A DNA stretch of 64,000 bases from Pseudovirgaria hyperparasitica (lineage: Eukaryota), in the NCBI GenBank assembly GCA_010093815.1, contig ML996566.1, one strand, 5' to 3'. Position 1 is the stretch's first letter. Every line of letters begins with the position of its first letter. A model generated the notes under the pieces. That model saw nothing but the letters and a program-made list of their open reading frames with translations. It searched no databases and was not told where the DNA came from. A program made the position numbers and the translations under genes. Below are positions 19,841-57,533 of this stretch, in pieces.

Positions 19841-21556
19841 TCAGACATTCAGACTTTCCAACGTCGATACCACCTGCTCCATCATTTGATGTGGGGACAT
19901 AGGATGCTTCTCATCCTGGTCATCATACGATATACACTTCTCAACAATGCCCCTGTACAGCGAGCCAGTCTTGGATCCCAAAGCGGGTACTCCAAGCTGA
20001 AGAACCTTCTCTTTGAACACTGTATGGGAGTACTTTGGCTTGTAGAGGCTCCTGACACTGCGCCAGAGTCCAATCTCCAGAAGGACAAGGCCAAGCGAAT
20101 AGATGTCAAAAGCTTTGCGGTAACTTTGACGCCACACACCCAGCGAGCTGGGATGTCGATATATGTCCTGGCCTTCGCTGTAGATCGGATCTGCTGTCAT
20201 CTCTGCAAGTCCGTCTGGCCGGGAACTGTCGAATCCAACAACATACGGATGTCTGAGGTCGTGGTGTTGAGCACCACTGGGCATGTTGCCAGTGAAGAAT
20301 AGTACATTATGACTGCTGAATGATTTGTGGAGCCAGTCCAGCGAGTGGAAGGACCACAGCGCGATTGCCAGTGTGTGCGCCAGCTTTATCCGGACGTCGA
20401 GATCCGGCGTCCGTTTGTCCTTGTCGTTATCTCCGAGCAGCGCGTATAGATTCTGGAAAGGAGGGACATTTCCTGCGTTCTGGGCAAGCTCGAGCTGAGG
20501 ACCATTATGTACGACGCCATATCGATGGCTTTTCGTATCTTCAACATAACCCAAACAGTCCAAGGTGTGCAGGTCCGGGTGTCGCGATGAGCAAGAATGT
20601 AGCATGCGCGACAAGTTATCCACCCTTTGGTAGAGATGCAGCCTTGAGTCAAGCTCCATCTCGGCATCGTAGTCGATCCAGTCGATGAGTACGGGCACGT
20701 CCTCTGACACTTTCCCGTCCCGCATGGTGTCCAGAGGCTTCGAGTATACAGCCCGGACCCGCCGCGCAACTGCTTTCTCGCTCGCATCGACTTGGATGCG
20801 CTCGCGGCGGATCTTGAGTTCGGACGAGGACAGGATCTTGCGCGACGGCTCCCGCTCCTTTCCGTCGAGATTGATACGAAGCTGCTTCAGACGCGCAAGC
20901 GTATTCAGACTGGGGTATTTCTCGACAGCAGACGTCTCGAGCAGCTGCAGAATATCAAGGTCGCGCTGGGCAGTGTGGAGAAGCTCGTTCGTCCATGTGC
21001 GCTGCAACGTCTCGACTCTCCCAGGCGGGAAGAGCTTCTCTAATCGGTCATTAAAGTAGGACAGATCCTGGACAAACGTGTCGAATTTCTCTCTATCAGC
21101 TATCACCCATCTGGCCTTGAGCTTCATGTCCTTGCGGAACCTGCTGCCAAACGAACTGGTCGCCGGGTCCGCGGCCTTCTTGCACGTGGAATACGCGTCT
21201 TGGTCAACACTGCCCGGTGCCTCCTCCCGCAGCCCATACTTGTCCTGGAGCTTGTGACAGTCGAGTATCGTGCCCAGGAGCTGTTCCAGGATGTCCTTGG
21301 CCAGGTCTTTGAGGCCCTCCCACGACGTCGAGGAGAGATGAGCTTCAAATCTGCCCTCCACGACGCCCCACTCCCGACCCCAGACCCAGAGCCGCATCTC
21401 CTCGATACGGATCTTGCACACCATCTTCTCGCTGTCTTTCCCGAGGTTCTTGGCCGTGCTAAAGACGCGGTACCCCGTGATGCACCCGTCGAAGAGCTGC
21501 CCAAGCAGCCCGACCGCCCCGACAACGCTCAAGGCCAGACCCGCGATCTCTGCCAT
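19841..21556 (-). CDS. HeLo (prion-inhibition/propagation) domain protein fused to a kinase-like (pseudokinase) domain, 571 aa, single exon
   Basis: HeLo-type N-terminus MAEIAGLALSVVGAVGLLGQLF..., KIRIEEMRLWVWGREWG, ARWVIADREKFDTFVQDLSYFNDRL. C-terminal kinase fold with WLHKSFSSHNVLFF, VVGFDSSR, IYRHP and DIYSLGLVLLEIG. Confidence 0.85.
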   Translation of the reverse strand: MAEIAGLALSVVGAVGLLGQLFDGCITGYRVFSTAKNLGKDSEKMVCKIRIEEMRLWVWGREWGVVEGRFEAHLSSTSWEGLKDLAKDILEQLLGTILDCHKLQDKYGLREEAPGSVDQDAYSTCKKAADPATSSFGSRFRKDMKLKARWVIADREKFDTFVQDLSYFNDRLEKLFPPGRVETLQRTWTNELLHTAQRDLDILQLLETSAVEKYPSLNTLARLKQLRINLDGKEREPSRKILSSSELKIRRERIQVDASEKAVARRVRAVYSKPLDTMRDGKVSEDVPVLIDWIDYDAEMELDSRLHLYQRVDNLSRMLHSCSSRHPDLHTLDCLGYVEDTKSHRYGVVHNGPQLELAQNAGNVPPFQNLYALLGDNDKDKRTPDLDVRIKLAHTLAIALWSFHSLDWLHKSFSSHNVLFFTGNMPSGAQHHDLRHPYVVGFDSSRPDGLAEMTADPIYSEGQDIYRHPSSLGVWRQSYRKAFDIYSLGLVLLEIGLWRSVRSLYKPKYSHTVFKEKVLQLGVPALGSKTGSLYRGIVEKCISYDDQDEKHPMSPHQMMEQVVSTLESLNV

Positions 21557-22166
21557 GGCTGCACATAAAATCCACCGACGGCACACGGTCACAGACGGTC
21601 GCGACAGAGAAAAAGGAGGCGTAGGTGGGAGGATGTGTGTTAGGGGACAAAGTCGCCGAGCAAATTTCATGAGAAACCCCCCGCAGGCCAATCCGACGTC
21701 AGAGTGAAGCCGCTAGTCCCGAAACAGCATCGCGGCCAGTCTCAGCAATCCTCCTCTTCTCCCGAGGTCCTCTTCCTCGTCCTACTTACTGTACACAACA
21801 GGAGAAGACTTGTCCTTCTCCCCAAACAGACTCGCCGCGTCCTTGCTATCGACACGATCGGATCTTTGCTATGACTATGATTTAATTACCTGGCCCTCGG
21901 GCCTGATCAATTTGCCTTCGGATCGATTGTCAAACACGCCGCCTGCGATAAGCACAATGGCGCAACGACAACCTCCTCCTGCGACGCATGTTTGTGCGGA
22001 GGCAGTCTTCAAAAGCACTCCAGGATCGCCCTGCTATCCCAGAATGAAAGCAGGAATCTCTCACTTCTAAAGTCTCTCTCTCTACATTTCTATTCTCTGA
22101 CTGGCCTGGTGCCTTACTGTCTCTCTCTATCTCTCTCTTATTCTCTATATATCAAGCAACGCAACG

Positions 22167-23216: not shown

Positions 23217-26200
23217 TCAAAGTTTAATAGCCAGACGCGGCTTCACGGCGTCAATCGGCTTCGGCTCGGTCATATCAATGGCAGAATCCTGCCTCGAGGG
23301 TGCCGACAATCCCTTCACTAGCGAAATGTTAGTTTCTTCTGTTCAGTCACCATAGTCCTGGTTCTTCTTACATGTCTGTTGTCTCCTATGATTCTCCAGG
23401 AGCTCGATAACAGCCGGCTGAGCATTGACGGTGGCCGCATTCAAGGCATTGTCAAACTTGCCACCCACAAGGTCCATATCAGCGCCCACGTCAAGAAGCA
23501 GCTGAATGACGTCCCCGTGACCGAACGCGGCGGCCGCCGTGAGCGCGGTGTGATATGGGCCGCCAGTCTGGTTGACAGCAGCGCCGCGCTCGAGGAGAAG
23601 CTTGACAATCTCGCTTTGGCCGTTGCTCGCAGCTGCCTGCAATGGGTTGCCGTAGCGGCCGCCGGGGTTGTTTGCAGATGCGCCGGCTTCGAGGAGCATC
23701 TTCACGACGTCGATGAAGCCGTTGCGCGACGCTGCTTGTAGCGGGCTACCGTAGTAGCCTTCGCAGACGTTGAGGTCTGGGTTGTGCGCGAGGAGCTGTG
23801 CGACGACGCGGTGGTAGCCGTTTCGGGCAGCTGCTGATATGGCACTACCGCCTAGGCCGCCTTTGAGCTTCACGTCGGCGCCGTATTCTAGGAGGATCTC
23901 GACTACATCGTCGTGTCCGTTGATTGCTGCGGCTTGGAGTGCGTTGTCGTAGTATCCGTTTTGCTTGTTGACGTCTGCGTCGTGGTCGAGGAGGAGTCTG
24001 ACTACATCCTCGTGGCCGTTGAGCGAGGCGGCGAGGAGGGCGTTCGAATACAGTCCGCCCTGGAAATTGACATCGGCTCCGTGTTTCAGGAGGACTTCGG
24101 TCGCTTTCAGCCTTCCGTTCAAGGATGCCGCCTGGAGTGCATTTCCAAAAGCACCGCCTTGGCTGTTGATGTCTGCACCTCGTGCGATAAGATGCTCCAC
24201 CACTTCCGAGTGTCCATTGTTAGCAGCAGCTTGCAGAGCAAATCCAAAGGGTCCGCCTGTCGCATTAACCTCTGCGCCGTGTTGTAACAGGATATCGACG
24301 AGATCGAAATGACCATGTCTTGCAGCTGATTGCAGCGCGTTTCCATAAGCTCCGCCCCTGATGTTTGCGTTCGCGCCCTTGTGAAGAAGCATTGCAGCAA
24401 CCTCCAAGGAGCATCCGTTGGCCGCTGCCTGAAGAGCACTGCCGTGATATCCGCCCACCGAGTCTAGACCAGCTCCATGATCTAGGAGAAGCTCGACCAC
24501 TGAGTTATGCTTCCCGACCGCAGCAGCTTGGAGAGGATAACCAAAATATCCCCCCTGTGCGTTTGCCGAGTGGCCTTCTCCAATCAGGTGTCGACAATAC
24601 AAGTCGAGCCCAAATAGGGACGTGAAATACAGTGGTGTCGGATCTGTCAAGAGATACGTGTCGAAACGCCTTTGTACACTTATGGAGTGATCACAAAAGA
24701 CTTGTAGCCAGGCAAGCCACTTATGCGTAACTGCAGTACTCCACGACCTACCGAAAAGAGGCAAGGTCGCCTCCTGTACTGAAGGGGCTTTGGCGTGTTT
24801 GAACCAGTAATTCGCGGCGTAGTCCAGAAAGGGATATGCTGCTAGTCTTGTGTCAAGTTCTTCATCGCTGTGGCAAGGACCACTGGAAAGATCATCATAA
24901 CCTAGATAGGTCAGACACATTGAAGTAATCTCAGTCGATGCAGCTGCTTCGTCCATGGCGAAGAATCTGGCAGGCCCCTGTCGCACACGGTCTGATTTCA
25001 AGTACTCCTGAACCGAGTAGTGAGCAAGACCAATGATATCGCCAGTAATGATGATCAGGCTCTTCCATCCGCATAGCAAATCTTCGGGCTTGGAGAACCG
25101 ATCTTCTGGATCCAATTCAGTCGAGCCGTTCTCGATCACAGCAGCTTCGGCAATCTCGAGCAGCGTCATCGGCCTTGCGCCATATATGATGAGCATAAAG
25201 ACACGTAGGAGCAGAGACTTTTCTTCCTCTGACTTGATGTCCACTAATATGCGCTCATATGTCTCGTCTAGAGTATCTGGCAGACCTGTCAGGGCTTTCC
25301 TAATTGCTTTAGGTCGCCTCAAGCCTTTGATACTGTCGAACTGGCACTTCACCCAGCGGAACCTGATGAAGATCAGAGTGGCGCAAAATCAGTAGTCTGT
25401 ACAGGGCTACGTACATTCCTTTCGCGCCTTGTACCAGAGTTTTGATTATATCCTGCTTCAAGTCGGACTTGAGGTTTGCTAAAAAAGGTTCTGCGGCAAT
25501 CTGCTCTCGGACGAACAACTCAACGTCCATAGCGACCGCAGTACTGTTTATTGAAACGGTTTGAAGGTTCAAAAACCTAAAGTCAGTTGAGATGTGCTGC
25601 TCATTACGACTCGTCATTAATAACGATATGGAGTGACTCGATATGAACTCTTGCAGAACGGGTAACAGAAGACTCCATTCCTTGCATTCGTCCAGAGCAT
25701 CGACGAAGACATTGACCTTCTTGAAATATTTTCTGGCAATGACGATGAAAAGAAATGTGAGTTCTTGGGGCGAAGGGCGCACTTTCTCTCCCTTGTACTT
25801 GTCGTAGAGCGATAGAAGATCTCCAGGTACGGTGTCAAGGTTCACTGAGAGTTGATGTATCAAGGAGACCAGTAACCCGGATGCAGTTTGCTTGGCGAGA
25901 TCACGGAAGTCAAAGTAGAAATATACAATGGCAGTGTCGTGAAGTCTGAGCGACTTCTTCTGAAGCCTGTCGATGATAGTAGAACTGTATTCTCGTGTTA
26001 GTGGAGCATTGCAAAAGGACCGAATGCATGCAGCAGCTTACCATAAGATAGTCTTGCCCGCCCCAGCTGCGTGACATGGTGGTTAGTAATGTGATTCAAG
26101 ACTCGTAAATCGGAGACTGACGAATTGCGTGAAGCCACAAGGTGTCCGACTCGGCGGTAGACCATGAGCGAAATTCACTGCCGTCTAGAAACCACAGTCC

Positions 26201-34600: not shown

Positions 34601-37600
34601 ATGGCGATTGCGACAGCAACAGATTCGGTGACTCCAAACTATGAGCGCTTGTACTGGGAGAAAGCGCGCAAGGCCTTCAAGGCTGGTAGACTTGACAAAG
34701 ATGGAGAGAAGACGGAGAGCAAAATCGACGATTTTCTGAAAGAGAGATCTACTCCACAGGAGGCGCGAGAACTATGCAAAGCTACTAAGCAAGCTGCTGG
34801 GGAGGAGTATTCAGCATCTCTAGGTGGCATTCTCGAGAAAATCGAGATCGCAATGCAAGTTGGTGATTTGGCAATTAAGAGCGCACCAGAGTCTGTTGGG
34901 CTTGCGTGGATGGGAATCCGGCTATGCTTGCACTCCGTTGCAGACGACTTCTCTACCTTCAGCATCTTTGGCCAGGCCTGCTCAGACATAATTGGGATCA
35001 TGATATCTTGTGCCGTCTTTGGGAAGATGTATGGACCCTCTAGAGGCGTCAACTCCTTTCACGAGATCCATTCACAAGTAACGGACAGAATTCCTAAAGT
35101 CTACACAGAGATCTTAGATTTTTCATATTCCGTGAAGAAACATATGGGCCACAATAAAGCATGTAAGTACGATCTTTACCACACTTCGATATTTTAAGGT
35201 ATCTCATAAATATAGATCGCATTGGTAAAGGCTTGCTGGTTCAAGCTTCTACGAGGTTCGAGGCTAAGATAAAGTCGATTAAGAATCATGACACTACTAT
35301 GGCCGAGTTCGCTCGAAGAGCTTACGAACAACTGTCTGACTACTACCTACGTACGGGTTTGACTAACCAAGAAGCAATGATGGGCGATCTGACCAAGATC
35401 AAGAGCAAGATGGAAATGTCGTTACGCATAAATCAGGACAACGCCGATCAGATGCGAGTTCTTATTGACGAGATCAAGAAGAGGAAAGAGATGACACCAC
35501 ACGATGTTGCTGTCAAGAACTACGAAGAGAACATGAAACAGTTTGGCGGGTCTAGTGATCAGAAAGCAGTATATGCAGCCAAAATCTCGAGAAGATCTCC
35601 CCCACAGACTTGTACTTGGATCTTTGACATGGAGTTGTTCAAATCCTGGTATGTCTCAGAGAAGAGCAGCGTCCTATGGGTATCAGGAGGGGGTGGTTTC
35701 GGCAAATCCATTCTGATGTCTGCCATCATCAACGAACTCCAGGACCGGGCCAAGGACACCGGAGCACATGTTCAGTATTTCTTTTGCAACGCTGGTGATG
35801 AGTCGACGAAGAGGACTGATCGAATTCTGAAGCATTTACTCTATCAGATGTACAGTCTATTGGAGCATCACTCGACAGAAGCGCTCGAGAAAGCGAACAA
35901 GCTTGTGTCTAATTTTCTTAAAAACAGGTCAACCTCCTCCAAGGAGAGCAAAGGCGACAACAAAAAGGACGATGTTGACTTTGCTAAAGTGTTTAGGGGA
36001 CTTGTCGGACTAGTTGGAAAACCCATCTTTATCGTTGTTGATGCTCTGGATGAATGCATTGATCGATCCGAGGGTTTACTGAGCTCGCTCAAGTATCTCG
36101 TGGATGGATCTACTTCAAACATTAAGTTAGCAATCTGTAGTCGGCCTGAGGCAGATATTGAGACTGCCTTTGAACAAATCCCTAGAATCAAAGTAGAAGG
36201 GAACAATGGGCCGGACATCAAACTCAATGCCCAAAGTGAGCTAGCAAGACTCCCTGGGCTGACGTCACACGAGCGAGCAACAGCGTGTGATAAGATTGTA
36301 GAGAAAGCTGGAAGCTTGTTCCGATATGTCGAGCTGGCGGTCAGATTCTTGAAACAGCCCTGGCAGCGTCCTCTCGAGCGACATCTAGAACAGCTCCCTA
36401 TTGGTCTCGAGGCAGCTTACGAACAGACCGTTCGAAATATCGACCCTGCGTATTTAGAATTGTTGAAGACCTGCTTGACATGGACTTGTCTTGCTGAAGG
36501 ACAGATTCGTGTCCCAGAAGTGATCGATGCTTATAGTCGTAAGTATGTCGTAGAACAAGAATCTCATGAAGCTGGGGATGTAGAGTCCATTGAAGAGCCA
36601 GAAGCTCAAGAGGATCTGCATGTGGATCAAATTCGAACCGCTGGATCTGCCTTCTTAGAGGTCGATTCCATGACTCGGGTCATCCAGTTGAGACATGCCA
36701 CTGTAGCGGACTATTTTCTTGGAGCAAAGCCTGAAGTCCAAACAGAAGAGCAGTGCCTATGTAAAAACTGCACAAGAACAGGGAACAGCCAGAAGTCTTT
36801 TGCTCTATCAGAGAAGCATGGGCACTTAACGATGGCTACGACTATACGTGAGTCTCTCTGTGGGCAATCCCTGCTAAAATTCCGAGCTAAAACCTGTGTA
36901 GTCAAGCATTTGTCGTGTGAATCTTTCCGCCAGGAATTCCTTGTGTCTTTCGAAAGGCGCGATGTCAAGGAGACGGTGGATACTCATGATAAATCAGGAG
37001 AAGAAGAAGAACAACAAGAACAACAACAACAGAACGACGAAAGCGAAGCTAAGAACGTAAATACTAACGACGGTGATATGACGGTCGAGCCTACTCAAAG
37101 CTCAGAATTACCACCTTCAGGGACAGAAGATGGTAAATCATCAGAGGAACCGATTAACACGGGAAATACTACCACCGACCAAAGTAGCGAAAAGGAACAA
37201 GACGCAGAATCCGAGATCGCATCTGCCACAGATAGCGATGCTGATATAGATCCTCTGGATCCTGTCCAGGCTGACTCTGACGATGTACAGGATCCAGGAG
37301 CTCGCTTCAGGTACGAGATCCACTACTTTCAGTTTCACATGTGCAAGGTCGAGGAGCTGTGGGAAGCGGAAGACCGAAAGGGTCCGGAATGGGAAGAGTA
37401 TGAAGCTCTTCAGGATTCATTCTTCGTCAAGGACTCTCCCTTCTTTCAGTCATGGATCAACCTCAAAAACCAAGCGCAGGGCAGTGCAATTTCATGGATA
37501 TTTGATATCAAAACTATTCATCCCATACACATAGCCGCGGCATACGGGCTGACCAGTTTAGCTGGGCGACTCATCGAGCGGGGTGCAGATCTTGCAGCTG

Positions 37601-39956
37601 TCACAGATGAAGGCTACACAGCACTTGATTTTGCTGTTGAGCATTACGGCTTTTCCAAAACGGAAGAAAGAGCCCACAAGAATGTCCTAAGACTCCTTGA
37701 GCTTCTTTTGAAAGCAGGTTCCGACCCCAATAACCTCGACAAAAGGACGGCGCGTACTCCCTTTTTACGCTTGTTCTGGCAGAACCCTAAAATTGAAGCC
37801 ATCCAGATATTCTTGGACAATGGCGCTGATGCCAAGGGTGTTGACCTGGCCTGGGGTGCAGGCTCTCTGCACTATTGCTGTGGCAATTGTGATGATCCAG
37901 CTGTACTTAAGGCACTTTTGGCTGCAGGTGCTGATCCGAACCTCGAGGACAATAGTGGTGAAACACCATTACATTTCCTGATGATGACGTGGAAACAGGA
38001 TTCACCCCTCGAGCTGGTAGATATCATGATCAGCGGTGGTGCCAATGTCAACGCGGAGGATAAGACCGGACAGCGTAAGTATCGCCTGGTATCAGACTGT
38101 TCTGTATTGATTGGTATTCAGGGCCACTATACGAGCTTTGTTGGTCTGGAAATGTTGAAGTCGCCAAGATATTGATCAAGAATGGTGCTGACGTGACAGA
38201 TGATGATGTGAGTTTCTGATGACTCTTCGGCCAATCGGACTTGACTTTGGCAACTGCTTATGATCTTAGGTCAATAAAATCACCGCTTTGCACATGGCCT
38301 GTCGAGCAGGCAATACAGATCTCGTGCTTCTTCTTATCGAACATGGAGCTCAGATGTCAGCCGTGGATGACAGAGGCTGCACTCCTCTATACTACAGTTG
38401 TGAAGCTAAAACAGATACAACAGCTCTTGCGCTGATAGATAGGCTTGGCACTGATGGTCTCACCGTACTGGGACTCGCCAACTCTGATGGAAAATCGCCT
38501 ATCCGGAAGGCCGCAGCGCGGGGACACCATAAAATCGTCGAAGCATTATTTGAGAAGTTGGGTTTAGACATAGCTGTTCTTGAGACTCAAGATAAGAAAC
38601 AGCAATGGACACCCCTACATGCAGCTGCCCACAATGGCCAAAAGGAGGTCGTTGAATTCATCTTAAGCAAAGGCGTGAATATCAACATTCTTGATAGGAG
38701 AGGGGACACGCCACTCAAAACATGCTTAGCATCCTGGAGAGACACTAGGACACAGGATTACGAATTTGTTGCGCTCAAGCTGTTAGATGCGGACCCGTCT
38801 AAGATTAGTGGAACCGAACTCTTACATTCAGCTGCAATAAGAGGAAATTTGGCAGTTCTCAACAAATTAATGGATAAAGGTGCCGATCCGTTACTACAGG
38901 ATGAACACGGTTGGACCTCCGTGCAAGTTGCTCGGCAATGTGGGCAAGATGAAGCCGCCTCTCTGCTATCATCGAAACGGGCTGTGACTGGCATTCGACC
39001 TAGTGGGTTGGTGAATACGCTACCGAAGATCTTCGACGTCTCAGGGGACGGCACCAGCATGACAGCGATGACAAGTACACCCCCTTACTGCAGACTTTTC
39101 ATCTCCGTTACTAATCTTCTGACCAGAGAAATGCGAAGGCTCACTCTTGGCCAATCATCCCATACCCGCCGGGATAGACGGTTTCTACTATGAGATCGAA
39201 GTTGACTGCCCAAATGCGCCATCACCGGACGCCCCTGCAGCAGAGGAATACCCGTAAGGCTCATTTTTCGGATAAGATGGCACTGACTAACATCTGCACA
39301 GGGAAGTTGCACTTGGTCTCTGTCCCCACACGGCCCGAACACGAGGCTGGCTTCCTGGCCGCAGCTGGCCTCGCAATCCAGCTTGGGGATACCACGGCGA
39401 TGATGGAAGTCTGTGGCCTGTCGTTTCAGGTGACAAACCTCACGCAGGTCTGCATGCAAGAGGTCACTTTATTGGAAATTTTGGCCATGCAGACGTTGTG
39501 GGCTGCGGTATCGATTTCACAAATAACAAAGTTTTCTACACCAAGAATGGCGAACTGCTTCGGACCTTGTCTCAAGAGAAACCTCCCACTCATTACGCTT
39601 TTGCCGAAGTCACCGGGCGTTTGTACCCTGTGGTTGGGACATCGAGGCAGAACTTGACAATCAAAGTCAACTTTGGCGGCGACCTGGAGACCAAGCCGTA
39701 CAAGTGGACGCCCGGTAATGCAACTGATTGTGGTAGCAAGTACCTCAGGGAGCTTGAGGAGGATCTGATCGCAAACCCTCCGAAGGTGGAACCTGAAAGG
39801 CCAACGAGTGCATCCAGTTCAGCTAAAGCTGTGGATGAGGATGGAAAGGAAAGCGGTGTTGAAGCTGATACTGCAGTCACTGTGGCTATTGGCGTGCCGG
39901 AAAAGACAAGTGTGGACGTTCGTGTGAACGATGTAGCTCAAGTCGCTGATAAGTAG
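34601..39956 (+). CDS. Fungal NLR-like STAND protein: helical N-terminal domain, NACHT, ankyrin repeats, C-terminal SPRY/B30.2. Exons 34601-35162, 35216-36847, 36902-38074, 38122-38207, 38270-39074, 39127-39253, 39302-39956
   Basis: APESVGLAWMGIRLCL N-domain; LWVSGGGGFGKS Walker A; IVVDALDEC; ICSRPE; HATVADYF; ankyrins (GETPLH, WTPLHAAA). After splicing, SPRY motifs ANHPIP..FYYEIEV, WLPG, WGYHGDDG, DVVGCGIDF, FYTKNG, LYPVVG, VNFG. Confidence 0.88.
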
Positions 39957-50626: not shown

Positions 50627-53056
50627 ATGCCTCCTCCAATAGGTAGACAAGAATAGCAGCTGTCATGTCAGGGCATGTCATTAATCTGAGGTACAGATGC
50701 AGATACAATACGAATTCTGGTTGCTACAGACAATCACGTTGGCTATAATGAGCGCGATCCCATCCGTGGATCCGACAGCTGGAGGAGTTTCGATGAGATC
50801 ATGTGCCTTGCCAAAGAACGTGATGTCGACATGGTTCTTCTCGCGGGAGACCTATTCCATGAGAACAAACCGAGCAGAAAAGCTATGTATGAAGTCATGA
50901 GAAGCCTACGAATGAATTGCTTTGGCGAGAAACCGTGTGAGGTCGAGATGTTAAGTGATGCAAGTGAGAACTTTCAAGGGTGAGCCCCCTCCTGGTTCAA
51001 GGAGAAGCGTGAACTGAATGTGGTCAGAGAGTTTAATCATGTTAACTACGAAGATCCGGACATCAACGTCGCGATACCGGTTTTTTCCATACATGGTAAT
51101 CACGATGATCCTTCCGGTGAGAATCATTTAGCGGCTCTGGATATTCTTCAGATGTCCGGTCTGTTGAACTACTATGGCCGAACACCCGAATCCGATAATA
51201 TCGCCATCAAGCCAGTCCTGCTTCAGAAAGGCCGCACGAAACTTGCGCTGTACGGAATGAGCAACGTTCGCGATGAGAGATTGTTTCGCACATTCAGAGA
51301 CGGTAAGGTCAAGTTCTTCCAGCCAAGTACAGCAAAAGATGAATGGTTCAATCTGATGAGCGTGCATCAGAACCAGTAAGCCCACAGATCTGTGTCGAAG
51401 AGATGCAATGCTAAAGATTTGCAGCGCTGCTCATACAGAGACCAGCTATCTCCCCGAGAACTTTTTGCCCGAATTCATGGACCTTGTAATATGGGGGCAC
51501 GAGCACCAATGTCTGATAGATCCACGCTACAATCCTGAAATGTCGTTCCACGTAATGCAGCCAGGTTCTTCTGTAGCCACATCTCTTTCCCCAGGAGAGA
51601 CTGACACTAAGCACATTGCGATTCTCAGTGTCACTGGGAAACAATTCAAGAGCGAGCCCATTCAGCTAAAGTCAGTTCGACCGTTCATCATGAAAGATGT
51701 CGTCCTACAGAACGAGCGCGCCCTGAGAGATGTATGGAGACAGGACGACAACAGGACTAAGGTTACGCAACATCTGATAGGGATCGTTGACAAGATGATT
51801 GCGCAAGCCAAGACTGAATGGAATGAGGCTCAAAATGACCCGAGCGTTGAAGCCCCACTCCCACTGATACGCCTTCGCGTAGAATACACGGCCCCAGAAG
51901 GTGGTAAGTTCGACTGTGAGAATCCACAAAGGTTCTCGAACAGATTCGTAGGGAAGGTGGCCAACGTCAATGATGTGGTCCAATTCCACAGAAAAAAGAC
52001 AGCTTCGCGAAAAGCCAGGGATGCCCCCGAGCTCCCAGAAGAGCATATCATGGACCAATTAGCGCTTGATTCAGTCAAAGTTGAGAAGCTAGTACGCGAA
52101 TTTTTGACTGCACAGTCACTCACGATTCTACCTCAGAACACCTTCGGCGATGCAGTCAGTCAATTCGTCGATAAAGATGACAGACATGCGATGGAGATTT
52201 TCGTGAACAGCAGTCTAGCAAGCCAAGTCAAGCATCTGTTGGACAAGGATGATATTGACGAGACTGAGATAAATGACGCTATGGAAAGTTACCGTGTGCA
52301 ACTAGAGGAGATGTTTGCTACTGGACAAGTTCGGGCAAACAAAGGGAAGCGCAAATACAAGCCGAAGCCGCCAAATTGGGATAGTGATATGGATGGTGAT
52401 TGGGAAGAGCAACCAGGAGCACTCATTATCTCAGATAGAGAGAGTGGTAATGGTGACGAAGATGACGATGAAGAACGCAGAGCTGCGACGACTCGTGGGC
52501 GCGCACGAGGCCGGGCAGGTAAAGCTTTAGGTACAGGCACAACTCGGAAAACCATCACTGCGAAAAGGAATTCTGCCAAGGCGCCTGCTAAAGCTGCACC
52601 AGCTAGAGGGAAGAAGAAGATCGTCCAAGAGGAATCGGAGGAGGAAGATGATGACGTAATTATGATTGACGACGACGACGAGAATGATGATGATGGTGAT
52701 GAAAGCCAGGGGCTCTTTGTATCTTCAAAGACTACCACTGCGAGAAGACCTCCGTCCAAGGCTCTTGGAAGTGCACGAGCAAAGTCGCCAGTGAAGAAGC
52801 CGACAGCACGAGCTGCAGCAACAGCGTCTGCTAGACAGACTAAATTGGATTTCTCTCAATCTGCGGTGCGAAGTCAAAAGATGCAGGCTAACACCCGAGG
52901 AAGGGCGGTCGAGCCAGTAAGTGTTTTTCCACATGCAACCACCTCTTGAACTTTGAAGCTGAGTTCCTTGACTAGAGTGACGATGAGATATCCGACGATG
53001 ACGACGACGACGCGTTTGAACCGGCACCTCCCGTAACGAGAAATTCTCGGCGATGA
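50627..53056 (+). CDS. MRE11: Double-strand break repair nuclease Mre11. Exons 50627-50642, 50697-50979, 51028-51375, 51425-52916, 52976-53056
   Basis: [73 protein letters not shown]. Confidence 0.98.
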
Positions 53057-54001
53057 AGAGCTTGTACAGGGCAATTGCCCAGGTATGGTCTTTGTAGAAA
53101 AGCAAAGGGGTCTTGGTCGAGTCTACTTTGCATAGCGAAAGGCGTTGCCTCAAAATGCCAAACATGATTGCATCCACAAGCAACCTAAGTGTTGCAGATA
53201 TAGAGTGGTAGCATCTTCAAATCTTGTATTTCAAGGTTTGTGCCCAGACTCTTCCAAAGCTGTTGCGACCTATGTATGTCACCTCTTTTTGATGGGATTT
53301 TGATGGCTTTCGCTCTCTTTGGTTTGCACCATGCTCCTTCTCTGAGTCTACGTTCTCCTTCCAAGTCCCCTCTTCTCTCATAAGTTGCCGCCGTGTGCCA
53401 GTATGTCGGTTCAGGGACATGTACCTCGCCGTGCATCCCATCGTTTCCTTTCGGTTTACGCCCTCGCGGGAAGGAGAGCAGCATATGCCCTACCTGGTGG
53501 TTGGAAGGGACCAGACGCCGGCCATGATGCCTACCAGACTTCTCCTAGACCTCCTTCTCTTCTTGTAGTCCCTACCGCTTCCAAAGTTATCAACCCATGC
53601 CAGTCATGTCGCCGCTTCGCAACTGCCGCATCGTGAAGCTCGTCATATATGGCTTCTTCTTCACCCTCATCAACCTCTTTTTCCTCCTCCATGCATCACA
53701 TTCGATCACTTTTGCTCCACATTCCGTTTCTTTATTCCACACCCACACAGTGTCTCAATCGCTTGGATAGATCAGACTCTGACTAGCATCAGGACTCCAC
53801 TGGTATGTGTGCCCATCTGCTTCTTTCTGGCAACCACTCCGAATGTGCATGCAGAGAGATTATGCTTAGTGACGTTCTGATATTCGGGTTAGACATTCTC
53901 ATCAACGATCTCTATACCACCCCACATACTCAACTGCCACCCCTGACAGCACTGTACCCAGTCGACGTGTTTGAATACGACACGAAAGCAAAAGACGGAG
54001 G

Positions 54002-57000
54002 ATGACAGCATACAAAGTCGAAGAGCTCTTGGCTCTCAGAGATTCGGCATCGGAGTCTGCTGTTTCATTTATCGAGAAGTTCGGTGATGAAGATGCAATT
54101 AAGGGTAAGCAAGCATGCACAGTTCACGATATTCGTCCCCTACACGCTACTGGTCATGCACGGTTGCCACGTCCAATCAGCTCACGCTCTTGGTGCGCTT
54201 TCTTTCTTTCCACTGACCATGCATGGTTATTCCTCACGTCCACTTGATCCTCAGCTTCGCTCCTCTTTCTTGGCTCATTCTTCTCAAACCACCCTCTCTC
54301 CATCTTATACAGTCAATCCTACTCCTTGAATACATCGTATCATTACCTTCCTTAGCTTTAAAGCCAGTTCTATCCTCATGAATCCCACCGCCCGACCGTT
54401 CGTGCCTGTAGAAAAGTGGCATTACAATCACTATCCTGTTACACCATCACCGGATGAGGAAGACGAATGGGAGGAGAACCCAGAAGATTTTTGTTGGAGA
54501 AGGCTGACACCACGTACTGCAGAGCATGTTCTGCGTCCTTCAGCCTCTGCCGGAGTGATAGGCTCGCAGCTGATGGGTAATCGCATGCGTCCCTCTGCAG
54601 GCACAGCCAACGGTAACAACAAGAAACCTTCACCCTCTCCTTCGTTTAAACGAAAGACTGTCGAGCGCATGATCAAGGAGCACGGTAGTCCCCCTGGTAT
54701 GCGAGTCACGGCTGGTGGCCGGGTTGTGCCTATTGACCTGCCGCCGCTAAGCAGTCCTCGATTTCCCTTCAACAACGCAAAGTCTCAAGCGACTAGCCGC
54801 GCAACTTCGGCTCCACAGCTCTTTGCCAATCACAACAACAGCATCAACGGCTCTGTCTTTCCCTTCGCGGGTCATTCGCCCTTGTACGTTGTCAACAACC
54901 ACATTTGCCAGCTCGTCAACGGACAACTTGTTCCCCTAGCACTACCTGTCTACGAGAACAACGGAGTGCTGCCCTCACCTCAGTTCCCAACGATGACTGC
55001 CATGGCGATGGGTGATCAGTATATGCCACAGCTCACTAATGGCTTTCTTGCACCTGTTCCTCCTGTCAATCTGTCTCCACTTGCTCAGGCGATTCCTATG
55101 CATTCTGGAATTCCGCCAATGCCATCTGCCGTACCAAGTCAACAGGTGGCCTCTGATCCAGGCATTAACCTCGCTACGAAGATCAAGATACTTGAAGATG
55201 AGTACAGTAAGCTGGAGAGTCAGCTGAAGGAGCTTGAGCGCCTTGAAGTTGTGCAGTCTGATCCAAGGGGACCGCAATGGCGACAAGAAGTCGTGAAGAC
55301 GAAGCGGACCTTCATTACTGTCCTTGACATTATTCGCAAGCTGCTCAAGGCTCTGCGCGCTGGTAGCTCTGACGGCGGAAATGCCATCGACGCGAACCCT
55401 CAACCGCTCCCCAGCTCCCTATCAACCGGTCACTCCCAGCCACCGAATGCGCACTTACAGCTTTCCACCTTGTCAGGTCTGGGCAACACTGCCCTGGGAC
55501 CATCGCCTGTCTCGCAGCCCACCCAAATGGATATGTCTGCCTACTACCAATCGTTTGGTTACCATCCTCAGCTTGAGCTCCAGGCGCCTGTCACGAACCA
55601 GGCCTCAGTACCAACCACTCTGGGCGCTCCGCTGTCCACAGCCAACGGGAGTGGAACCTTTGCTGTAGCAAATCCTCCTTCCCAATCTACTTCATCGAAC
55701 GGCATCTTAACACACAACAGCGGTCAGCCACCTTCTCCGTGGCGGTCAAATGGCCCACGTCGGTCACATGCAGTTGAGATCAAAGATCCTCGTGACGGTT
55801 CCAAGAAGTCAACTGGACAGCAGTCTAAGTCTGCACTCAATCCTACGAGTCCGACGTACGAACCCAATTCTCGAGTCAAGACACCAGAGCCGCGATCACC
55901 TGGCATCTTCGTGCCTCCCTCTCCCTCACCAATACCGTCCCCAAGTCGTCATGAAGCCATCGAGGCTCAACATCCCTGGTTGTTCGACCAGTCTGATCAC
56001 CATGGCAACGTGGAAGGACACAAGAGCGCCTCTGGAAAGACTGTTAAGCACAAGTCTAGTGCCGCCAGCGTCCAGACGGCCGATTTCTTCCCGGTCAATA
56101 CTCACGAACACTCGAACAAGACTCCTAGTGGCGCTGCGAGCAAGTCAGGAAGTCCTCTGAAACTCGGAAATATTGAGGGGGCGCCAGCTACACCGGAGAA
56201 GAAGTTCTTGATGGACTTTGCCGAAAGCCAGTTTCGAAGTCCGAATGACGAGAATTCTCATCCTGCGGCTCCTCCTGTTTCTCCAGCGGACGCCCGGGGA
56301 TCGTCTCACAATGGTGATCTAAGTAAAAGCTACGATAGATACTCCATGTCCAGTGCCGACACATTGAAGCAGACACTGACAACCACCGAACATGCACATA
56401 CATTTGTGACTTCAAGCTTAGATGCTAAAACCTTCGGAAGCATAAGATCTGGTCAGGACTTGTCTACATTGCCAGTGCACAAGCCACAGCCCACAAAGCT
56501 CAACTCGGACTCTTGGCTAAGGGGCTACGGTGCGGGTATGAATCGAAGCTGTCTTCCAGACGGTGCAGACGAGGACTTTGTCGCCGGGTATTGTCGGGGC
56601 CTACAAGACTGGCAGAAGTCTCAGAGAAGCCAACCTGGAAATCCAGGAAAGTTTACGGAAGTGTTCCATACGAGCTCCACTACTCTTTCTTCAAGATCAC
56701 CTGCTAATGTCGTGGCTCTTGAATTGACTGCGAATGGCATCGCCGTTCCTACTAGAAGACCGCATGCCCCTGACCATCCTCACTGTCCTCCTGGTCTTGG
56801 GGCAAGACCTTCTGTGGACGTTGGCTTTGTCACTCGTCCCGGCTCTAACATCTGGAGCCCTACTAAGACCGATGGGTTTCCGAAGGACTTTCAAGCCCGG
56901 CGACAAGTTCCAGCTCCAATAGGCACTTCTGCTACTCAAGGCGCGGAGCATATAATCTTCGATCAGCGTGCGGCATCAAGTTCTCCAATGATGAGTCTCT

Positions 57001-57533
57001 CGCGCAGTGTTCAGCCGAGCTACACCATTGACTCACAGAGCTCGAGAGCCTTTCCAGCGAGTTTTCCTTCGCAGGTTGCTCCACCTGTGTCCAGCCAACG
57101 CTACTACCCTCCTATGAGGGCGCCAGGCCAGCACGTGCCGCATCATAGTCCTCGAAAGGGTGATCCCAGTCGTATTTCTCAATGTGATGGTGCACTCGAT
57201 GACATGGTCGATGTTGTCACGGACTCTGGACCCAGTTCCCCCCCAGCTTCCAAGACTACCGGGACCAGATCCAACGGCAATTCACCAAAGAAGGGCGAGT
57301 CTCCTGCGAAAGCCAAGCTCGAGCAGATTGCGAACAGTGTAGCAAAGCAGGTCCGAGGGAACCGAAGCAAGAAAACTGCCGAAGATGAGCAAAAGCCTGG
57401 AGATGACCCTGCGCACATGAGCACTCAAGATAAAAGGCGCTGGAGAGAAAATTGGCGCAAGCGGTTCGGCGACCTCAAGAACAGAGAGAAAGAAGAGATA
57501 GATCGCTATCAACAGGAGAATGCTACTGATTGA
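54002..57533 (+). CDS. Large, mostly disordered hypothetical protein. Isoform A exons 54002-54104 + 54523-57533; isoform B single exon 54378-57533
   Basis: 1051-codon ORF from ATG 54378. Upstream exon MTAYKVEELLALRD...DAIK with GTAAGC donor (54105), GCTGAC branch (54503) and CAG acceptor (54522) joins it in frame at EHVLRP. Confidence 0.8.

Follow-up and report, generated by a model that had tools for sequence, protein, structure and literature searches.

A putative eIF4E-binding exon and an ATG-started intronic frame as candidate alternative N-termini of a Dothideomycete protein family

We analysed a gene in a 64,000-nucleotide stretch of DNA (contig ML996566.1 of assembly GCA_010093815.1; hereafter the window) from the filamentous ascomycete Pseudovirgaria hyperparasitica. 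It follows Mre11 at a distance of about 1 kb, on the same strand, and encodes a product of about 1,040 residues without a Pfam domain, so far known from Dothideomycete fungi only. On balance, we consider it probable that this one gene has two alternative N-termini. Form A would start at ATG 54002 with a 34-codon exon 1, which is spliced across a 418-nucleotide (nt) intron into exon 2. Form B would start inside that intron at ATG 54378 and read 48 codons through the branch point and the acceptor into exon 2, without exon 1. At the level of the gene family, alternative and mutually exclusive N-termini are well supported by the comparison of predicted sequences. In the window species itself they are plausible but unproven, because the similarity of its intronic extension to those of other lineages is weak and the context of the ATG is poor.

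All features of the gene lie on the + strand. The coding part of exon 1 (54002-54104, 34 codons plus one base) supplies the N-terminus of form A; it opens with MTAYKVEELLALR at ATG 54002-54004, translates as MTAYKVEELLALRDSASESAVSFIEKFGDEDAIK and includes YKVEELLALR (54011-54040), a stretch resembling an eIF4E-binding motif. The intron that follows (54105-54522, phase 1) has the donor G|GTAAGC, beginning at 54105, and a CAG acceptor ending at 54522, with a branch-point-like CTGAC (54504-54508) located 15 nt upstream of the AG. Pyrimidines are abundant in the 5′ part of the intron (54105-54377), where the C+T fraction is 0.67 overall; this part contains ATGs at 54115, 54156, 54219 and 54223, with no further one before 54378. 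C+T is 70% in the 100 nt upstream of ATG 54378 and 45% within the open reading frame (ORF) that this ATG starts. The extension so defined (54378-54522, 48 codons) would form the N-terminus of form B. It reads MNPTARPFVPVEKWHYNHYPVTPSPDEEDEWEENPEDFCWRRLTPRTA and then, in frame and contiguous with exon 2, EHVLRPSAS...; the exon-2 frame is open back to 54330, giving 64 codons before the acceptor. The acceptor ends in a G that takes the place of the last G of exon 1, so that Glu stands at the join in both forms. Exon 2 is common to both and runs from 54523 to the stop codon at 57533; one RNA-derived contig covers it from 54522 on. The initial annotation had placed its features correctly, base for base, including the 418-nt intron, the CT-rich tract and the in-frame intronic ATG running into the shared exon, all of which are visible in the sequence itself. 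In the public gene call for this genome, the protein has 1051 residues and starts at ATG 54378 (the exact sequence is also in the ESM Atlas); the call therefore misses the conserved exon 1.

The family-level evidence comes from related loci. Among 72 related metagenome loci, 26 have an ATG-started extension that ends at the same acceptor, with the exon-2 frame open upstream; 17 of these are distinct and were analysed. In many other Dothideomycete lineages the extension makes up the last ~130-175 nt of the intron, as in MSMLPREPSFEFHRDWVQKIIATPSPR..SLTVDGSPT|EHVLR and M..SPSFSHHERFASLLVADTPSP..WLTDDLA|DHVVR. Every locus with an extension also carries exon 1, located 150-240 nt upstream of the extension ATG, and the intron measures 296-369 nt. 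Across the extension segment of four independent pairs, differences at codon positions 1, 2 and 3 numbered 18, 22 and 62. Three of these pairs show no gaps or only small ones in the segment, against 2-26 columns with gaps in the 5′ portion of the intron. A purine is found at position -3 of the extension ATG in all 17 lineages, mostly in the context ACCATG or ATCATGG. Judged by these comparisons, the extension in other lineages is under purifying selection as coding sequence, and its occurrence there is new in this analysis. A CTRAC branch point lies 15-20 nt before the AG in these loci and encodes the Leu-Thr found near the end of their extensions, as CTGAC does in the window; the last codons of the extension therefore double as splice signals, and the same bases are under two constraints.

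We also asked how the extension could be reached. In 6 of the 17 loci there is no in-phase AG upstream of the extension ATG, and elsewhere such an AG is present but not conserved; the extension is therefore not generally reached by splicing from exon 1. The window does have an AAG acceptor at 54361-54363 that is in phase with the phase-1 donor. Splicing of exon 1 to this site would put the YX4L-Phi motif and ..SSILMNPTARPFVP.. into one protein, and the two motifs would not be exclusive. Public models P0232 (Zasmidium), P0124 (Aureobasidium sp.) and P0017 (Phyllosticta) do join exon 1 to part of the extension. Such a tandem product is nevertheless very improbable in our view: the AAG site has no close upstream branch-like CTRAY, the comparison with the other loci argues against it, and the contigs, which can miss rare forms, contain no such joint and only 54104>54523.

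Annotated proteins gave a similar picture of two alternative starts. A second protein search, with an Aureobasidium member as query, listed 120 proteins of Dothideomycetidae, whose genera include Aureobasidium, Elsinoe, Hortaea, Teratosphaeria, Cladosporium, Fulvia and Zasmidium. Classified by sequence patterns, 50 of the listed matches start with the extension, 14 with exon 1 and 2 with both, and 54 were left unclassed, many of them by eye variants of an exon-1 or an extension start. Dothideomycetes sp. NU457 has two adjacent annotated gene models on one contig that are identical over 1045 C-terminal residues and differ at the start, exon 1 opening one model and the extension opening the other. 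Strains of Hortaea werneckii are annotated with either start. Public gene calls are thus inconsistent, some beginning at exon 1 and some within the intron, and annotation of the family needs both models. A different ATG-started in-frame extension of 46 residues occupies the same place in the Coniosporium lineage (P0008, locus L018), where MADS..SKLRNGASDFLYRAAAPADPIF.DT.GLLISPYDFV is conserved between both records. Judging from this lineage, retention of an intron-encoded start of some kind may be more general than the SFxxHxxW..TPSP version found in the extensions of the other lineages.

Exon 1 proved conserved in a search with the window's own protein, which returned 137 relatives, all named ones being Dothideomycetes; 120 were listed, and among these the best non-self match is only 32% identical. 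M..YKVEELLALRDSVSESAVS..IK is joined directly to EHVLRPSAS in 45 of the 120 listed homologues and is followed by an insert in another 11. A start within the intron-equivalent region is seen in 21, the window's own protein included; 6 start a few residues before the anchor sequence, and 37, either shorter calls or Mre11 fusions, have no anchor in the search range. A profile hidden Markov model (HMM) of exon 1 matched 68 of the 72 related metagenome loci. Exon 1 and the junction ..IK|EHVLRPSAS are conserved across Dothideomycetes.

RNA-derived contigs were available from two runs (X1 and X2) of one sample and one study. The kind of run is unrecorded; we took both as cDNA because the contigs carry four GT..AG joints. 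Contigs of X1 and X2 join 54104 to 54523 exactly. A separate 477-nt contig spans 54075-54551 and thereby holds the end of exon 1, the complete intron and the beginning of exon 2. Spliced and intron-containing RNA forms both exist in the organism. The last intron of the neighbouring Mre11 gene (59 nt, joint 52916>52976) was found only in spliced form, with no contig covering the intron, so the unspliced form of our gene is not carry-over of genomic DNA. The initial annotation had proposed mutually exclusive N-termini at this locus. Both starts are indeed encoded, and a transcript retaining the intron was found next to the spliced one; the identity that it gave to the second N-terminus fared less well, as described below. 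Contig depths (two values each) were 16.4 and 42 for the junction, 14.7 and 28.3 for the intron contig, 42.7 and 94.8 for the upstream exon, and 52.1 and 134.3 for the downstream exon; such depths cannot rank parts of a gene and were not used for isoform level or for an internal start.

The same contigs also fit a simpler account, in which only form A is made, the 418-nt intron is long and slowly spliced, the intronic ORF is a decaying relic or chance, and the intron-containing RNA is a precursor or a retained form that is unproductive from 54378. The contigs give no RNA start site and no support for the promoter choice that the initial annotation proposed. The intron-containing contig crosses the exon-1 donor, and plain intron retention therefore explains the RNA equally well. 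A second long intron of the gene, the 518-nt intron in the 5′ untranslated region (UTR; 53275-53792, GTATGT..CAG), is optional: one contig joins 53274 to the following micro-exon and another (53245-53801) is unspliced. General poor splicing of the gene's long introns therefore fits these data too. We regard production of form A alone as possible though rather unlikely, and the sequence features that bear on it are given below together with the comparison of the extensions.

Retention could also be productive in itself. Read without splicing from ATG 54002, exon 1 is followed by 47 intron-encoded residues and a stop at 54245-54247. The product would be an 81-residue free peptide acting as a putative mini eIF4E-binding protein, or else the transcript would be targeted for decay and self-limiting. 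Part of exon 1, from 54075 on, is present in the unspliced contig, the exon-1 frame does stop after the 47 intron codons, and there are other signs of translational control, such as upstream open reading frames (uORFs). We think either version improbable. The read-through tail is not conserved, with the stop falling after 2 to 271 intron codons in the 17 other loci, and it would be left unexplained why the extension of other lineages is conserved in the manner of coding sequence and has a strong ATG context.

Whether the extension in the window belongs with those of other lineages decides how far the two-start reading applies to P. hyperparasitica. It lies at the same position, has 48 residues compared with a median of 45 elsewhere (within a range of 35-75 residues that was our own filter) and contains TPSP. 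The spacing F-x5-W-x7-TPSP, common to extensions of other lineages, is present as FVPVEKWHYNHYPVTPSP (54399-54452). This pattern has 15 matches in 1,099,548 six-frame residues (the window plus the 72 related loci), of which 14 are extensions of other loci and one is the window's; having been picked after the window was viewed, it carries less weight.

A number of further results count against membership. An HMM built from 24 extensions scored the window extension at 3.7 bits, a score reached by 32 of 2000 shuffles and by 15 of 1850 six-frame ORFs of the window, and an HMM of 107 extensions gave 2.0 bits (p 0.018, one target). The one-target p values of these matches, about 0.003-0.02, indicate weak similarity. 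TPSP is the only part that aligns by HMM, and the window has Val where a His recurs among the aligned extensions. ATG 54378 has the weak context CTCATGA, with C at -3 vs a purine in 17 of 17 other lineages, and an RNA with an upstream start carries seven other ATGs, from 54002 to 54223, ahead of it. In a FastTree tree of the family, the window has a long branch and falls to the Pleosporales / Mytilinidiales / Eremomyces side, with 95% local support; the nearest rows (Lepidopterella, L009 and L013) and Pleosporales lack the extension and have short or unconserved open frames. By codon-usage log-odds, the 48 codons resemble exon 2 of the gene, but 27% of non-coding open windows reach the same score or a higher one, and codon usage does not discriminate here.

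The poor ATG context and the upstream ATGs, the weak HMM similarity, the lack of the extension in the nearest relatives and in Pleosporales, and the uninformative codon usage speak for form A as the only product. Against this, a 64-codon open frame with TPSP and the F-x5-W spacing stands where other lineages have a coding extension, C+T drops at the ATG, the unspliced RNA is not genomic DNA, and the strict PAM2-like pattern discussed below is unique in the 1.1 million six-frame residues. Taking these sequence comparisons together, we put orthology of the window extension to that of other lineages at roughly even odds or somewhat better.

We then considered what each N-terminus might bind. Proteins of the canonical eIF4E-binding class compete with eIF4G for eIF4E. 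An excerpt of PMC6061780 gives the eIF4E-binding consensus as YX4L-Phi with R/K at position 9, and places the motif of yeast p20 at the very N-terminus. Exon 1 of the window, with Y-KVEE-L-L and Arg at position 9, fits this extended consensus (PMC6061780, excerpt), as the initial annotation had recognised; the motif lies four residues from the N-terminus of form A. Of the 38 distinct orthologous motifs collected, 36 retain Tyr and 2 have Ser in its place; Leu at +5 and Arg at +9 occur in 38 of 38, partly by construction of the collecting pattern. The Phi position is Leu in 25, His in 11 (a large clade), Gln in 1 and Phe in 1, and the motif is canonical in 24 of the 38. The His and Ser variants make the eIF4E motif imperfect across the family and tell against the proposed function. 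Binding of eIF4E by exon 1 is a reasonable inference from the motif. In the Botryosphaeriales proteins P0011, P0013 and P0017, exon 1 carries Ser where the motif has Tyr (SKVAELLALRDS). If exon 1 binds eIF4E via the canonical Tyr, the species concerned should have lost or altered binding.

The second half of the initial annotation, which took MNPTARPFVP (54378-54407) for a PAM2 motif, is its weakest part and is contradicted by the lack of conservation. Compared with the PAM2 consensus xxLNxxAxEFxP (as excerpted from PMC4466420), N, A, F and P fit, the initiator Met stands for the key Leu and Pro stands for Glu. The pattern [LM]N..A..F.P has a single match in the six-frame set, namely this site, and is thus very rare by chance. 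Neither the strict nor a loose PAM2 pattern occurs in any of 107 distinct extensions of other lineages, and no N-terminal PAM2 match was found in the other 119 listed homologues. Of the intronic MNPxAxxFVP frame whose conservation in orthologues the initial annotation had named as a check, the ATG-started in-frame extension is present in many Dothideomycetes and the MNPxAxxFVP sequence in none of the 107. A Pfam search of 54378-54522 and of the region around the internal motif, with E values up to 10 allowed, returned no family, PAM2 included; short motifs often miss models of the Pfam type. The Phe of MNPTARPFVP appears to correspond to the Phe common to the extensions of other lineages. If MNPTARPFVP is a PAM2 motif, it would have arisen in the window lineage only. 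The shared part of the protein carries an internal conserved motif, LNPTSPTYEP (55836-55865), whose outline resembles PAM2 but in which Ser replaces Ala and Tyr replaces Phe; an alignment of 35 homologues shows no variation at P489, S491, P492 and P496, and at least 90% of them keep L487 and Y494.

The arrangement that we favour, one gene with two alternative N-termini, would work as follows. The window extension would be a diverged counterpart of the extension in other lineages, and form B would be translated from an mRNA starting within the pyrimidine-rich 5′ part of the intron, which is by inference only a candidate internal promoter or leader. Exon 1 of form A would dock on eIF4E's dorsal face, and the choice of start would therefore decide whether the protein is tethered to the cap-binding factor. 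More speculatively, the MNPTARPFVP N-terminus of form B might dock on the MLLE domain of poly(A)-binding protein (PABP) in the window species. We consider doubtful the full combination, in which the two forms (an eIF4E-docking exon and an intronic start) exist across much of the Dothideomycetes and a species-specific PAM2 ligand adds a promoter-controlled switch from eIF4E to PABP. If it were true, such a switch would decide which end of the mRNA the protein holds. If both forms are made, the gene would be a compact natural case of a translation-factor docking motif toggled by start-site choice. The arrangement spans a large fungal class with many crop pathogens, in a protein family that was previously unstudied: our full-text literature search found no description of the family, nor of such a switch for a fungal 4E-binding-like protein.

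Comparison with known systems shows partial likenesses. Large disordered eIF4E-binding scaffolds are known from animals, 4E-T and Cup; the present family would resemble them in its length, in the lack of recognisable domains, in a 4E-binding-type motif close to the N-terminus and in additional conserved short motifs behind it. The family protein has no detectable homology to them, and we know of no counterpart in 4E-T or Cup of an alternative N-terminus that removes the 4E motif. The eIF4G1 isoforms with or without the PABP-binding region arise from alternative first exons or promoters. As in eIF4G1, one locus would here give two N-termini that differ in a translation-factor docking site, a difference that is predicted in our case. 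Unlike in eIF4G1, the second start is placed inside the first coding intron, and its frame passes through the branch point and acceptor of that intron, the same bases serving as splice signals and as codons. Exon 1 shares YX4L-Phi with yeast p20 (Caf20) and Eap1 and, as in p20, the motif lies few residues from the N-terminus (excerpt of PMC6061780). A stretch of the form SESAVS[IFL]x[KR]F follows it within exon 1 and is conserved across homologues; its hydrophobic part, AVSF/I-x-KF, about 12-20 residues after the motif, could serve as the non-canonical motif, which in eIF4E-binding proteins comes after a linker and contacts the lateral surface of eIF4E. Unlike p20 and Eap1, the family protein is about 1,040 residues long, has other conserved short motifs and has His at Phi in a large clade, with no homology to them beyond the motif and no Pfam or Protein Data Bank (PDB) sequence match. 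With the PAM2 proteins Upa1 of Ustilago maydis, eRF3 and Paip2 the window protein would share the N, A, F and P of MNPTARPFVP (excerpt of PMC4466420) and the internal LNPxSPxYxP of the family. It differs from them in that the key Leu is the initiator Met with nothing before it, in the Pro for Glu, and in the absence of the motif from 107 of 107 extensions.

Database searches placed the protein in no named family. Pfam searches with the whole protein, exon 1, the extension and the internal motif gave nothing except a sub-threshold Rpb1 repeat match, and a Protein Atlas lookup returned only unnamed Ascomycota clusters, with no name for the family. PDB sequence searches with exon 1 and the extension, against a library of peptide chains of at least 20 residues, produced chance-level matches only. 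In one of these, the extension part NPTARPFVPVEKWHYNHYPVTPSP (54387-54455) aligns with residues 182-206 of eEF1A2 at E 0.74, probably by chance. Neither an eIF4E nor a Pab1 gene is among the other large ORFs of the window.

The leader of the gene has further features. The contig joint 53274>53793 precedes a 10-nt micro-exon (53793-53802), of which the contig letters between the joints match 53793-53800, and a joint 53802>53893 removes a second 5′UTR intron of 90 nt (53803-53892, GT..AG). When the leader is fully spliced, the upstream 5′UTR exon finishes with an ATG (53272-53274) that opens a 41-codon uORF; this uORF passes the micro-exon, and its stop codon, TGA 54003-54005, overlaps the main ATG 54002 (ATGA). 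The form with the unspliced 5′UTR contains many more upstream ATGs. Judging from these uORFs, the gene looks heavily controlled at translation.

Upstream, Mre11 matches Pfam PF04152 over 51360-52946. Its frame is broken near the end by the 59-nt GT..AG intron (52917-52975), which is spliced out in the contigs, and the true C-terminus therefore differs from the open-frame end at 52949. The contigs that feed the first coding exon of our gene are continuous with the Mre11 3′ end, branching at 53274 with no break back to 52800. Either the 5′ end of the gene overlaps the Mre11 3′UTR, or part of the RNA is read-through from Mre11. In several public annotations (P0075, P0092, P0098 and P0132) Mre11 and the gene are fused. 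Elsewhere in the window, ORFs with HeLo, NACHT / NPHP3_N and ankyrin-repeat matches form a cluster (19844-21712 and 23346-25388 on the - strand, 35167-38172 and 38270-39190 on the + strand) that is typical of fungal NLR-like incompatibility or defence loci.

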